Below, in pieces: positions 1-44,019 of a stretch of 64,000 bases of DNA. The DNA is from Octopus vulgaris (Eukaryota), in assembly GCA_951406725.2 (NCBI GenBank), contig OX597837.1:17298001-17362000 (forward strand), read 5' to 3'. Position 1 is the first letter of the stretch; each line of letters starts with the position of its first letter. The translations under genes and the position numbers were made by a program. A model generated the notes under the pieces. That model searched no databases. It was not told the DNA's origin and saw nothing but the letters and a program-made list of their open reading frames with translations.

Positions 1-422
1 CGTTAACCAGCTGCCCTCGGGCGAACGAAATGTGAAAAAGTTCAGAGTTGCAGAGATTACAGATTCTTTTGCCTCTATCAAACGGTGCAGACACCAATAA
101 AATCGACCATTCCAGTCTAAATGCTGAATTCGCGTTCTTCAAACGCCAGATTAATTTACTCAGTCCGGTCGCGTGTTGTTTTCTAAAATCGCGAAATGTT
201 GTGAAGTTTTGTGCCTTAACATGGGCTCCTAGGGAGCGCTTTGTTCGAATAGCTTGCTGTGCATTTGTTTGGAGATTTAAATTCCTGGTTTTTCCTGAAG
301 AGAAAGCTGCAAAATGGTCTCCTTATTCAATCCGAATTTGGAAATTTGCAGCCTTTGAAACATGTGTAGAAAATAATAAAAAGGAATTTTGTAGAATCTT
401 CGTTCAGCTCCATTTCTTCCCT

Positions 423-28210: not shown

Positions 28211-30706
28211 AAGATAGAGAAATTGTATGCTTCCTGACTGACAAATCAAGTAGAATGTCTGTTTACAACCTATCAAACTATATTTAAACATGCAATCACA
28301 CATCAGAGAACAACTACACTTGAATACTCTGAAAATGAAAAAGTCCTTAATGCTCACACGAGGATGTGGAGTATCATTCCCCAGTCTGAGAAATGTACAG
28401 TGAACAATTTCATAACCACCAACAATGAAATCCCACCTCTATATGGCCTTCAGAAAGATCATAAGAGCTACTTAGTTCATGTACTTGGGCCACCTACTCG
28501 ACCTGTTTGTGGTGCTAACAATGCTAACAACCACAAAATATCATATTCTCTCTCACAATTCCTACAACCCTTCATAGAGTTATTTACAGATTTTTGCGAT
28601 AGTACTGAAGACTTAGCAGGATTCACGAATGCAGTAACACATGTAACCTCAGTGACCACATCATAGGTAGCATGGATGTGATTATCACTATATCCTTCCA
28701 TTGATGTAGACTTTGCTATTGAAAAATGTATAGAGTTAATTTGTGAGAGTAATATGATATTTAAAATTGTGGATGTATATAAACTAGGCCTCTTCCTGAC
28801 CCTAACTTGTACCAATGAATATCTGTCACACAATAAACTGGTATATGCTTGTCTCACCTGTAACAAATGAGGTAGAACACTTACTATTACCTCAGCATAC
28901 AAAAACCCACAGTAAATGCTGGCACGGCTGGACAAAACCAGACCACCAACCTTCAGATGTACATGACGTCAGAATTACTGTCGCATACGCTATCGGTGTC
29001 AGCCTTAGAACTACTCTTAAAAACCATATTTTAAAGTTTAATAATAAACTATATAAACAGACGAAAGGCTATTGGTGTAGGGATCGCTGATGATGTTGCT
29101 AGCCCCTTCATGGTATGATGGGACATACCACTTCGCTTTGTATTCTCGATAATTTGATGACATTAACCTTGTCGTGAAAAGTAATACACATATGGACGTT
29201 CTACTAAATAAAGAACAGATGATGACAACTATACAACACATAGCTGACTCTATCCATAGCAGTATAAAGGTTACTGTAGACCCCTCTAAACCCCAGAAAT
29301 AGATTACCTGTCCTAGATACTGAGCTGCAAATAGAAAATACTGATTAACGGAACTGTTAAACTCATAATGCCCAGTCTGGGAATTGAAACTGAAATCCTA
29401 CGACTGCAAGTCCGCTGCCCTAATCACTGGGCCATTGTGCTTCCACATAGGAGCACTCCATTGGTTACGATGACGAAGGGACCCAGATGATATGATCAAT
29501 GGAAAAGCTTGCCCGTGAAATTAACGTGCAAGTGGTTGAGCAATCCACAGACAGGTGTACGCCTAACGTAGTTCTCAGGGAGATTCAACATGACACAGAA
29601 TGTAACAAGGCTGGTTTTTTGAAATATAGGTACAACTCATTTTTACCAGCTGAGTGGACTGGAACAACATGAAATAAAGTGTCTTGCTCAAGGACACAAT
29701 GTGTTGCCAGGAATTGAACTCACGATCTTACAATCATGAGTTGAATGCCCTAACCACTAAGCCATGTGCCTTTGCACACTATTGTAAACCTATGGCTAAT
29801 CCACTGGTAATCCATAGTGACTCAGCGATGTCAAGTACTACCAAAATCCTCATCTTCATGGCAGACTTGGTTAGAGTAATGAGGAATGAACCCCTACAAT
29901 GCCAACCACAAGAACGACAGCAACATATCCAGCACTACATATTCCGAATGCAATGTTCCGGTTACACACAGTATGATAGAATCAGAGTGTACAAAGGAGC
30001 AAAAACAAGATTCGAATGCATTCTAAGAGATGATAAAAACGGCATATTCTGCAACAAGTTCTGGAATAAGTTGGAGAGGGACCCAACAAAAGAAATAGAA
30101 ATAATACTTGGTATGATAACAAGAAGTTTCACAGTGTAATGTTTGTTGATGCTACACCTAGGAACAAATTAAGTAGGGCATTTAAGAAAATCCTGCACAC
30201 AACTGGCTTTAAAATCAAGGTTGTAGAAAAGACAGGTAGGATTATCAGATCTGTATTAAGTAAGTTATACCCATTTGATAAAATCACGTGTCAAAATAGC
30301 TGTGCAGTATGTTCTACAAACTCACATATGAACTGCAAAAAGAAAAACTCTGTATACCAGATTAAGTGCCAAGAAGGGTCTTGCGTGATTATCCCAGAGT
30401 CATATATTGGTGAAACTTCTAAGAGTATCAAGGATAGGTTCAAAGAACACCTGGACAACTATATTGAGAACTCATCCTCCACCCAATAATAATAAAAAAA
30501 AAAACTCCTTCTTCTATCAGCATACTGTAGATTGCCACAATGGCTCCTTAGAAAGGCTTAGGTTAGACATTCTGTCTACACATCCCAATGATGCAATGCT
30601 GAGACAAGTCACTGAAGCTGTCTGTATACAGGGATACAAACCCACCCTCAACTGTAAATCCAAATGGGGTAACTCCCAGATTCCACTCAGGAGTACTCAT
30701 CTATAA
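28211..30706 (+). mobile_element. Decayed Penelope-like element (RT plus GIY-YIG), interrupted by SINEs at about 29365-29772
   Basis: LYGLQKDHK...PTRPVCGA, SMDVxSLYPSID, FNNKLYKQTKG, LPVLD; C-terminal CKKKNSVYQIKC...YIGETSKSIKDRFKEH...RQVTEAVCI...PTLNCKSKW. Confidence 0.85.
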
Positions 30707-39808: not shown

Positions 39809-40495
39809 TATATATATATATATATATATAGGAAGAATAGAAAAAGGGGACAAGTGCTCAAGGTGTTATTAAATCAAATATATTTTCATATCTCCTACAT
39901 GTGTATTGATGGATGTGACCAAAATATGTCCGACAGGATATATAATGGTCAGCTATGCATCAATCTCTTCAGGGAAAGTATAAAAAACAGTACCCATCAA
40001 ATAGACAAGTTAACAAATATATGAAGACCCAGAAAATGTGACGTATGCATATGCCAGCACACACACAATACATATGTCAAGATAAACAATTATATTTTTA
40101 TTAATATTACATATATACATATAAACACACACACATTAATATATACATACATATGCACACGCATATGCAAACCCATAATATATATATATATATATATATT
40201 AAATTAGAGATAAAACCACTATTAGGCAAATCAAACAATGAAAAACATAAGCCAATACATAAAATTAATTTAATTTATATTATTTTAAATATATATCAAA
40301 AGTATTAAAAGTTTAATAAAAGATAAAGAGTAAAACACTACGATCGTTTCATGGCTGTACAATTCGAATAACAATAATTTAAATTCAATTAATAATTCGA
40401 GTTATGGTTACAGTCAATCTTCAGGTTAATTGAAATATCTAAAAAATAATCAGAAATATTTAAACAATATTTTAAAGATATAAATAATATAATAA

Positions 40496-40915
40496 CAATA
40501 ATAAATCTCTAAGCGAGGTATAAACAGTAACTGCTCTGTAATATAAGCGGGACCAGCCATCTGAATGTGGCTAGGGACAGGGCGGGGTGGTGGGGGTGTT
40601 ACTGATGCATTTAGCCCCAGGCGACTATAGACGTCACCAGGAGAGCCGACACCATCACGGTATCCTTGCTAGCCTGTAAAGGGAGATCAGCCGGTGCTTG
40701 CCATGCGCTGACGAGAGGCGACCACCTCGAAACCGGTCCGTGTGTAGCATCCGTATCTTCGGGGAGGCTGATCTCCCTTTACAGGCTAGCAAGGACACCG
40801 TGATGGTGTCGGCTCTCCTGGTGACGTCTATAGTCGCCTGGGGCTAAATGCATCAGTAACACCCCCACCACCCCGCCCTGTCCCTAGCCACATTCAGATG
40901 GCTGGTCCCGCTTAT
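40496..40915 (+). mobile_element. GC-rich 420-bp fold-back retroelement with hammerhead ribozyme in the loop (inner layer)
   Basis: Arms 40542-40692 and 40766-40916 (151 bp, 1 mismatch). 13-bp direct duplication AATAATATAATAA at 40483-40495 and 40916-40928. The empty site is visible in the opposite arm of the host element (about 41704-41728). Confidence 0.92.
40693..40751 (+). ncRNA. Type I (minimal stem III) hammerhead ribozyme
   Basis: Stem I GGTGCT-TGC-CATGCG paired with CGTGTG-T-AGCATC; CTGACGA at 40708-40714; stem II GAGG-CGACCA-CCTC; GAAA at 40729-40732; palindromic CCGG; TC at 40737-40738, with predicted cleavage after 40738. Confidence 0.9.
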
Positions 40916-41780
40916 AATAATATAATAATATTACTTATAATAAACTCTATTATCAAACTAGAAACATAAAACTTAACAATTATGATTATATCAAAATCGA
41001 CTATAATGTTAAATATTAACTTTAATTTATAAGGTAGGAAACCCACCAATAATCTAATAAACCAACAAATCTATCGCTAAGTAGTATCTTACGAATAAAC
41101 TTAAATTTAATATCTAATAATATAGAAAATTACGATAATTAGATCATTACATAAACAACGATATTTACATAAGGAAAATATTATTACACCAAAGACTTAT
41201 ACAATATTAAAATTTACAATTTGAAGATCTTAAATATAAATAAATAAATACTTATCTTAGTGAGGTTTAGTAATTAGTATTTATAGTATTTATTCGATAC
41301 TATATTACTACGAATTGATTATTTCTATAAGTATTTTACATAAGATTTCCGAAAGTTCGTTTAAGTTTGTTTATTTGTATTTTGAAATTAGCTATTTCAT
41401 CTTTAAATATGAAAAATTAATTTATTAGGTTTTTATTATATGTGCATATATATTTATTTATAGAGATTATTTTAGATCTTAATTATAATATTTATATACA
41501 TTTATATATTTTCATTGATAATTTATTTATAATAGTCATTTTTAAATATTTATGTAATTAGATATAGATTAATACCGATATTAGATAATTGGTGGGTTTC
41601 CTACCTTATAAATTAAAATTAATATTTAACATTATAGTCGATTTTGATATAATCATAATTGTTAAGTTTTATGTTTCTAGTTTGATAATAGAGTTTATTA
41701 TAAGTAATATTATTATATTATTTATATCTTAAAAATATTGTTTAAATATTTCTGATTATTTTTTAGATATTTCAATTAAC

Positions 41781-41866
41781 CTGAAGATTGACTGTAACCA
41801 TAACTCGAATTATTAATTGAATTTAAATTATTGTTATTCGAATTGTACAGCCATGAAACGATCGTA
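41781..41866 (+). ncRNA. Hammerhead ribozyme motif with extended stem II (mirror copy on minus strand at 40339-40424)
   Basis: CTGAAGA, TTGACTGTA...TCGAAT...ATTCGA...TACAGCCAT, GAAA, CGATCG, TA. Stem I has only about 2 contiguous bp. Confidence 0.62.
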
Positions 41867-42095
41867 GTGTTTTACTCTTTATCTTTTATTAAACTTTTAA
41901 TACTTTTGATATATATTTAAAATAATATAAATTAAATTAATTTTATGTATTGGCTTATGTTTTTCATTGTTTGATTTGCCTAATAGTGGTTTTATCTCTA
42001 ATTTAATATAATATAATATAATATAATATATTTATACTATAAAATTGGAATTAATCCTAAATCTGATTTTTCCCTGTAAGTTTGGATTTATTCCC

Positions 42096-42149
<54 letters not shown>

Positions 42150-44019
42150 GCACATACATACATACACACACATATATATATATATACATATATATATATA
42201 CATATATATATACATATACACACACACACATACATATGGATACATATATACATACATATACCCATACAAACATACATATTTCTATATATACATTTATACA
42301 CATACACGTGTAGAAGGGCACATATACACATGTACATATATATACATCCACACATAAATATATGTACATATACATTTTTTTTGGTTCCAGCTCAGAGCTG
42401 TGGCCATGCTCATGTATATGCTGATATATATATATACACATATATATATATATATATATACATATACACACAAACATACACATATATACATACACACATG
42501 CATACACACATACATACAAACACATCTACACACATATATATACTCACAACATATACATATATACATATGCTAACATTAATAGACATATATGACTACGTAC
42601 TTACATACATAAGTACACTTACACATACAGGAGCATACACATCCAAAAAAAAACGCAATACATCTAAACGCATACTTACATACACTGACATATGCTTAGA
42701 TAAGCACATACACACATAGCACTAACATAGCATACATACAGGGACAAAACCAGATAAACACGCATATACATATATGGAAAGCTAAGTATTGAAGGGAATG
42801 CTAAAATTTGAAAATGCCATTAAGGAAATATACTTCATAAGGTAAGAGAAGAGAAGGCATAGGTGAATAGGGAGGGGGGAAAAATTAAAACAAAGTTAAA
42901 AGAGAGTGAGGGAGAGGAGCGGGCAAAATTGGATTTTATAAAAGATGGGAAAAAAATGAATGGAGGAATAAAGGTTATTGGAAGTAAGGATAAATAATAA
43001 AGAAAACATAAAGGATAATTTGCAGAAATTATTGTTAGGTAGATACTATTTGAAAAAAGAACGAAGGTGTGTTTTTTCCAGTATTTACATCTGTAAACTC
43101 ACTCCATAAATGTATTCACCAGATTATGTTTGGAAAACAGTATTGTAAATTTTGTTCCTCTGTGCAAAGCGGGCAGAAAGGTTTCCCTTTGTCATAGGGA
43201 AATGATGAAAATAAAATTTTCCAGCCTAAAGAAAAAAGCTTGTTAGAGTCCTTAAGGTGCCAGATTAGTTTACTAAGCCCTGTGGAATTACACTTACGAT
43301 TGTATTTGAAGGTAGAGAAATGGTTAGCCAGTCTCAATTTCAGTTCTGTAGAGGAGAATCCTATATAAAAATATTCCTTGTTACAAGAGGTAATCTTGTA
43401 CTGGTACATGGCATTCTTAATTCTCCAGTTTCCATTTCGGACACAGACTATATGAGGACCACAATTGCAAGGCTTAGTTTCATTGATATTATGATTTAAG
43501 GAGAGATTATCGTTAATATTATTGTAAACTTAATTAAAGTTGCTAGGGTTATTAGGAGAGACACTGTAACCTCTTAGAACACAGCTGTTATGTGATGCTA
43601 CAATTTGTAAAATATTGTAGGTGTTGGAAAAACCTAGTCTCATATGGTGTTGGTGTATATGTATATACGTGTATATATATATATGGGTTTGCGTATGCAT
43701 GTATGTATGTGCATATATATGTATGTATCAATGTGTGTGTTTATATGTATATATGTAATATTTGTAAAAAATATATGTTTAATCTAAACACATGTTGCAT
43801 ATATGTGTGCATGTTTGCATATGCATATATATACGTCACATTTTCTGGGGCTTCATATATCTGTTAAAATGTCTATTTGATGAGTACTGTTTTTTATATC
43901 CTCCCTGAAGAGATTTATGTATAGCTGACCTGTCAGACATATTTTGGATGCATCCATCAAAACATATGAAGATATAAATGATTTAATAACATCTTGAGTG
44001 ACAGAAATCTTTTGTAGCT

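Follow-up and report, generated by a model that had tools for sequence, protein, structure and literature searches.

Metazoan non-LTR retrozymes are described, in the accessible parts of two reports (Cervera and de la Pena 2020; Li, Clavereau and Pollet 2026), as non-coding tandem units of 150-450 nt that carry one type I hammerhead ribozyme per unit, occur as dimers to multimers, are flanked by target duplications longer than 4 bp and co-occur with Penelope-like elements (PLEs). Mobilisation by PLEs has been proposed for these elements (PMC7229834; bioRxiv 10.64898/2026.07.22.740005), and in the literature available the mobiliser of animal retrozymes has been argued from co-occurrence and pLTR homology alone. 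Inverted, 5'-truncated copies with a one-sided tail have been published for PLEs themselves (PMC8557442; PMC3846280, each as far as its text was accessible), and how such copies and tails arise is undefined according to the part of PMC8557442 that was available.

The window, by which we mean the whole 64-kb stretch of Octopus vulgaris DNA that was analysed, contains at positions 40,483-40,928 a hairpin that represents a single insertion of a non-LTR retrozyme with hammerhead-bearing tandem repeats of 359 nt. As in the described families, the units are tandem, non-coding and hammerhead-bearing, and the copies are dispersed with target duplications longer than 4 bp. The family is a real, young and new member of the animal non-LTR retrozymes.

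Results

Structure of the insertion

The insertion is bounded on the plus strand by a target-site duplication at 40,483-40,495 (left, 13 bp) and 40,916-40,928 (right), and consists of two arms joined head to head. The left arm, or B arm, comprises unit positions 74-274 with its sense strand on the minus strand (40,492-40,692), and its 3' end is at a site designated B. The right arm, or A arm, extends on the plus strand from unit position 1 to about 225-227 (40,692-40,915), and its 3' end is at a site designated A. The two meet at 40,692 in a 74/1 junction with an overlap of 1 nt, a junction absent from all other mapped insertions. Unit positions ~226-274 form a tail that is confined to the B arm (40,492-40,541, minus strand), and a type I hammerhead motif with the stem III palindrome ACCGGU lies at 40,693-40,751 on the plus strand.

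The initial annotation had described the same DNA as a fold-back with 151-bp arms, a 73-nt loop and a 46-bp extension. Its arms were recovered at 40,542-40,692 and 40,766-40,916 with a single mismatch at 40,662, base 151 of the right arm being base 1 of the target duplication, and its loop at 40,693-40,765. Expressed in unit coordinates, the window copy is unit 74-274 (minus) joined to unit 1-227 (plus), so that the loop corresponds to the beginning of the right arm, and the 46-bp extension to the unit sequence past position 225. The extension is present as described, and it is reinterpreted here as a PLE-type tail (unit ~226-274).

The 13-bp duplication and the preserved empty site were also borne out. 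The 13-mer occurs three times in the 64-kb window, at 40,483, at 40,916 and, once and inverted, at 41,710 in the other arm of the host element (41,710-41,722, minus strand); the host copy L368 likewise carries it once. The left duplication shares its last 4 nt with the end of the element tail, so the duplication measures 9-13 bp depending on assignment. The insert was rich in GC and CpG relative to the window, with a GC content of 0.55 and a CpG observed/expected ratio of 0.68 compared with 0.38 and 0.36 in the window, and the absence of any frame of 120 aa or more agreed with its description as non-coding.

The host (40,195-42,095) is itself a young, AT-rich multicopy element arranged head to head, with a short end on one side and a long end on the other; the two end sites are about 85 nt apart. 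Its copies have 98-99% identity and variable head-to-head junctions, no hammerhead was found in one copy scanned, and it is possibly another non-autonomous PLE-type family. An older inverted pair at 39,857-43,998, with arms 77% identical and a GIY-YIG remnant at 43,116-43,529, encloses the host, which in turn holds the retrozyme, so that three insertions are nested at this position. Elsewhere in the window (28,325-30,676) lies a broken older PLE in several frames, a relative of the element PLE-X discussed below, with 44-50% protein identity over most pieces.

Repeat unit and sister families

When the 2.8-Gb genome was searched with the insert, matches lay in tandem at a period of 359 bases, and arms reached about 5.6 units of 359 nt. 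For a young element of this genome, the closest protein with a species name, that of Octopus vulgaris, was 97% identical. The reference unit was a natural one from L010, with numbering that starts on the 5' side of the ribozyme. The mobile unit is the 359-nt tandem monomer and not, as had been claimed, a fold-back with a ribozyme loop. The wider description of a young, non-autonomous element that bears a hammerhead and the marks of PLE insertion stood, and a genome-wide check of copies, which had been suggested with it, found dispersed copies, tandem arrays and target duplications.

The ribozyme core with its palindrome had 133 exact genome matches compared with 10 for a reversed control, and 78 among the 100 matches listed of the 133 belonged to the retrozyme. 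The site-A region had 264 exact genome matches and the tail had 477, many of which were stubs or members of a sister family. Identity to the reference unit was 95-100% for most copies and about 90% for a few. Part of the repeat was detected in 20 of 24 listed sequencing runs, and half of its words or more in 6 of the 24; none of the runs listed was recorded as RNA, and these detections were counted as evidence neither for nor against.

A sister repeat of 350 nt is about 60% identical to the 359-nt unit end to end, with a score of 191 against a shuffled maximum of 117. A diverged sister retrozyme (L348, L356) has a tail nearly exactly common to the 359-nt family and a different upstream region, and the near-identical tail suggests that tails may have been exchanged between families. 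In three retrozyme families, a small hairpin with a 5-7 bp stem and a 6-8 nt loop was observed 10-17 nt before site A (L010:1412-2129, L194 and L356); it is a candidate recognition signal. A 30-codon frame running through the tail was dropped, as it was not conserved in the 350-nt sister family when read by eye.

Hammerhead motif

All elements that had been attributed to the loop are present in its letters, namely CUGACGA, stem II GAGG/CCUC with the loop CGACCA, GAAA, CCGG and UC. They agree with the core CUGANGA / GAAA / UH of a type I hammerhead and, from their placement within 40,693-40,765, predict a cut at 40,738/40,739. The Rfam check that had been proposed for the motif came out negative. 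No hammerhead model matched the insert at the gathering score or at E<=10, and the best match was a generic hairpin resemblance to a miRNA model, although an Rfam match was counted as a convenience and not as the definition of a hammerhead. The folding energy of the motif alone was unexceptional (z -1.5), and across four motifs z ranged from just -1.4 to -2.1; folding was therefore left out of the support for the ribozyme.

With no hammerhead match in Rfam and folding unexceptional, the ribozyme call is based on the conserved core and on covariation. Covariation extended to all four helices among the sister families. Among 11 motifs from about five families, 16 of 17 pairs in helices I, II and III changed on both sides, and the motif alignment was 87% paired, a value reached by 0 of 500 shuffles, with slid controls at 28-47%; because the rows are related and the structure was drawn from the same sequences, the covariation is supportive and is not assigned a probability. 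In the place equivalent to stem III, the sister families have three distinct palindromes (6, 8 and 8 nt) with duplex energies of -8.3 to -10.7 kcal/mol. A short palindrome that differs in sequence among sisters would suit cleavage as a dimer, as the initial annotation had anticipated.

The lowest-energy fold of the monomer mispairs the hammerhead core. This predicted mispairing and the palindrome fit the dimer-dependent, canonical metazoan type I form (PMC4209133). The motif had been named a minimal type I hammerhead; by the definitions in the accessible text of PMC4209133 it is the canonical metazoan form, with a long stem I, a 4-bp stem II and a short palindromic stem III. In the part of a 2026 preprint that was available (bioRxiv 10.64898/2026.07.22.740005), one of nine predicted Xenopus dimers cleaved. 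The 151-bp double-stranded RNA stem capped by a ribozyme, which had been envisaged as the transcript, is an accident of a single locus: the 74/1 junction is unique to it and, since all 48 mapped junctions differ, the loop coincides with the ribozyme by chance of the local junction.

Ends of inverted insertions

Ends were scored at two sites, site A at unit 224-229 (~225) and site B at unit 268-274, which bounds the Penelope tail, about 48 nt apart. In two-armed insertions the arms lie head to head, which makes the outer end on either side a sense 3' end. Forty-nine of 53 two-armed retrozyme insertions had one A and one B end, and none was A/A or B/B; one BLAST end among the 49 continues into the flank. 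The remaining four paired a B end with an end at neither site (147, 214, 258 and 359). The signature of PLE insertion, an inverted head-to-head copy with a one-sided tail, was therefore present on the retrozyme in 49 of 53. Duplicate records of one locus, the hybrid copies L145, L182 and L248, the garbled L044, the second copy in L346 and the tandem PLE-X cluster L314/L315 were dropped before these counts were made.

Because the first query favoured tail-bearing loci, a separate census, unselected on ends, was drawn from the first 100 of the 264 site-A-region matches, which represented 48 loci. Twenty-nine of its 32 two-armed loci were A/B and three were odd, and its 15 single-armed loci comprised seven A, seven B and one other end. 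The census also contained one tail-to-tail B/B pair, L345, whose B ends lie around a (TA)10 tract (L345:1367-1719) and are of one haplotype.

The same pairing was found in 19 of 22 two-armed insertions of the 350-nt sister family, with three odd, and in 9 of 9 insertions of a third family that shares the tail; since selection in each sample was on the tail, A/A pairs could not show there. The A/B rule is general in the Octopus vulgaris genome, as it was observed in the retrozyme, in two sister families and in PLE-X.

Junctions, arm lengths and targets

Fold-back junctions were mapped in 48 two-armed insertions and differed in all 48. Among 28 refined junctions, 15 had an overlap of 0-5 nt, nine had 1-14 inserted bases and four were complex. 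Junctions seemed to cluster at the hammerhead boundary, but this pattern was discounted, as the first queries had selected it and the reference unit was cut there. Arm lengths were unbiased (A longer in 17, B longer in 20) and uncorrelated (rho 0.27, p 0.10), and in 21 of 48 insertions neither arm fits within the other, which excludes a plain snap-back without later cutting.

Targets were AT-rich or (TA)n, the latter in 35 of 48 loci, where the length of the duplication is unreadable; duplications of 11-14 bp were found in 11 of the 48 and none was found in two. L034 and L225 are independent insertions in opposite orientation at one shared site of another repeat. A fold-back or MITE-like class with fixed terminal inverted repeats was considered and rejected, given that 48 of 48 junctions differ and the ends are asymmetric.

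Haplotypes of paired arms

Divergence between arms was 1.6% within an insertion compared with 3.7% across loci (0 of 2000 permutations), and the nearest arm was the arm's own partner in 14 of 36. The terminal units of 44 loci contained 84 concordant lineage alleles, and private alleles common to both arms were present in five. Seventeen of the 44 loci were discordant, 13 at a single site and four at two or more lineage alleles. L236, one of these four, is error-ridden; in L002, L050 and L228 the arms differ at 2-4 lineage alleles without a spare unit to copy. Variants recurred within arrays, with period 3 in L010 and irregularly in L022. A monomeric circle as the template for several arrays was unsupported, because units differ and variants recur.

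Candidate helper elements

PLE-X is a young element with RT and GIY-YIG domains (weak Pfam hits) and is 99-100% identical among its best 40 copies. It has two ends, 53 nt apart, which were paired short with long in 12 clear cases among 20 stretches; the other stretches included one odd end and one tandem cluster left unscored. Two-armed PLE-X stubs that pair a short with a long end lie at 693-1,343 and 1,742-2,073 of the window. The PLE-X protein has a long asparagine-rich N-terminal region, and a hammerhead-like variant with an altered core was seen about 125 nt before the short end (L242:4222-4268).

The insertion L242 is a hybrid in which a retrozyme A arm stands head to head with a 5'-truncated PLE-X arm across a 3-nt microhomology, and the PLE-X arm ends at the long site. 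Four related copies of the hybrid were counted as one event. It lies within a (TA)n tract, where a duplication could not be read, so a two-step origin by two insertions and a deletion is possible. On another contig, the hybrid copy L243 is flanked differently on the right and its retrozyme arm is shorter; it may represent a remobilised daughter. The tail-to-tail arrangement of PLE-X and the retrozyme is found in L187.

The initial annotation had invoked a PLE with RT and GIY-YIG domains acting in trans and had looked to a PLE that shares the terminus of the element. PLE-X is the leading candidate for such a helper, an assignment to which we give slightly better than an even chance; a shared terminus was found in none of 50 GIY-YIG loci or 60 PLE-X/PLE-Y loci, which sample the PLE families. 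Between the terminal sequences of PLE-X and the retrozyme there was no detectable homology, 373 of 500 shuffles scoring as high.

Other PLEs were considered as helpers and rejected. In an abundant young two-ORF family (L111-L128, e.g., L114:1768-5468), the intact RT/GIY-YIG frame measures 781 aa and is overlapped on its upstream side by a second frame of up to 479 aa, and short repeats make up the 3' region. To our knowledge, this two-ORF layout is unusual among endonuclease-bearing PLEs. The family had no homology to the retrozyme and no hammerhead, and the copies viewed had direct repeats in place of two ends. One L119-type copy had equal ends. PLE-Y has its own minimal hammerhead, yet the copies aligned have just one 3' end. 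At L036 and L224 the retrozyme lies immediately downstream of another PLE and shares its orientation; it was likely inserted there beside an older PLE end with a deletion.

Discussion

Mechanism of insertion

We favour, with moderate confidence, a two-ended target-primed reverse transcription carried out by a PLE protein, probably dimeric, whose two cDNAs are joined head to head. Arrays would be transcribed as multimers in which, owing to the palindromic stem III, cleavage would depend on the pairing of two ribozymes. The RT/GIY-YIG protein, probably as a dimer, would nick both target strands about 12-13 nt apart, after which cDNA synthesis on a sense RNA, which may be uncleaved or circular, would be primed at site A by one 3'-OH and at site B by the second. 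The two cDNAs would end at independent points and be joined head to head by short microhomology or inserted bases, and the templates would usually derive from one RNA or source array and sometimes from different units or RNAs. The A/B rule, the unbiased and uncorrelated arm lengths, the 21 of 48 insertions with unnested arms, the multi-site discordance at 4 of 44 loci and the hybrid L242 support the model. In vitro, a PLE protein for which a dimer is predicted cleaves and extends both strands and starts at two sites bounding the tail (PMC11167929, in the part accessible). Against the model, the arms of one insertion usually share a haplotype, which a copy-back (hairpin) intermediate predicts likewise, and 13 of the 17 discordant loci differ at only one site. 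The hybrid is a single event, PLE-X and the retrozyme adjoin tail to tail in L187 and have no detectable terminal homology, four insertions have odd ends, and the tail-to-tail pair L345 is unexplained by the model; the available text of PMC11167929 also gives the same start site for the top and the bottom strand in vitro.

The same element and helper class could instead yield A and B ends if a single cDNA folded back and copied itself and the endonuclease then opened the hairpin with a stagger of about 48 nt. We consider this unlikely, although it is the alternative that deserves most weight, as it accounts for the A/B rule, for the shared haplotypes and private alleles and for near-diagonal junctions such as 284/277, 72/65 and 113/103. 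Also in its favour, the accessible parts of the PLE literature assign the tail to endonuclease-mediated resolution of an intermediate (PMC8557442) and propose self-priming on an antisense template (PMC3846280). A self-copied hairpin needs in-register identity of the terminal units, whereas these differ in L002, L050 and L228 with no spare unit available; it could not produce the retrozyme/PLE-X hybrid in one step; and both tail boundaries are mapped as RT start sites in the available text of PMC11167929. That the 420-bp fold-back with its ribozyme loop is a fixed, functional mobile unit, as the initial annotation had it, is very improbable. The loop does coincide with the motif at 40,496-40,915 and the folded plus strand retains stems I and II within it, but 48 of 48 junctions differ, the 74/1 junction is unrepeated, and many copies are multi-unit arrays or single arms. 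Least probable of all is that the palindrome arose artefactually, by fold-back in assembly or amplification. At some loci of the family (L044, L145, L221, L235 and L236), arms that are garbled or marked by numerous small deletions indicate that palindromes trouble the Octopus vulgaris assembly; the differing flanks, the direct duplication, the empty site and the asymmetric arms with defined ends speak against an artefact, as does one end rule common to four unrelated or diverged families.

Whether the two-ended reaction describes PLE integration at large, with a dimeric RT/GIY-YIG protein always using the short site at one end and the tail site at the other and with two RNAs allowed as templates, is a proposition on which we are evenly divided. 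The octopus retrozyme is another animal retrozyme family, and its value is as a test bed, since a young family with countable ends has provided a quantitative rule, the pairing of a short with a long end, as well as a named candidate helper. If the asymmetric two-ended rule is true, it would alone explain both the inverted copies and the one-sided tails of PLEs. The hybrid would then directly document, in physical form, the enzyme by which animal retrozymes are mobilised, and a shared terminal sequence would be unneeded.

Comparison with known systems

In L1 twin priming, both ends of the target prime cDNA synthesis and an inverted 5' part is joined via microhomology. The octopus insertions differ in that the second primer starts at a fixed site and in that the junctions do not cluster at the start of the other arm. 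In the literature accessible without subscription, supplements excluded, we found no prior statement of near-obligate A/B pairing or of the two-ended model, and likewise no PLE signature on retrozyme arrays and no retrozyme/PLE hybrid. Inverted arms are not described for retrozymes in the available portions of PMC7229834 or bioRxiv 10.64898/2026.07.22.740005.

PAc (Poseidon of Anolis; Frangieh et al. 2024, PMC11167929) is alike, within the accessible text, in having two internal RT starts that bound the tail, cutting and extension of both strands, an AT-rich target and an insertion that is independent of hammerhead cleavage. That text reports no strand difference in start site and leaves pairing within one insertion unaddressed. 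The tail of the PLEs in PMC8557442 and PMC3846280 is 30-40 bp and is called optional in the parts available, whereas the octopus tail is 47-53 nt. In comparison with these published PLE insertions, so far as their text was accessible, the pairing of short and long ends is near obligate in two-armed octopus insertions, and the cargo is a non-coding multimer. Xenopus retrozymes have pLTR homology to their helper in the available part of their report, whereas none was found between the octopus retrozyme and its candidate helper. Unlike the metazoan non-LTR retrozymes described so far in the accessible reports, the octopus family has insertions with the full PLE signature, one of them fused to an autonomous PLE.
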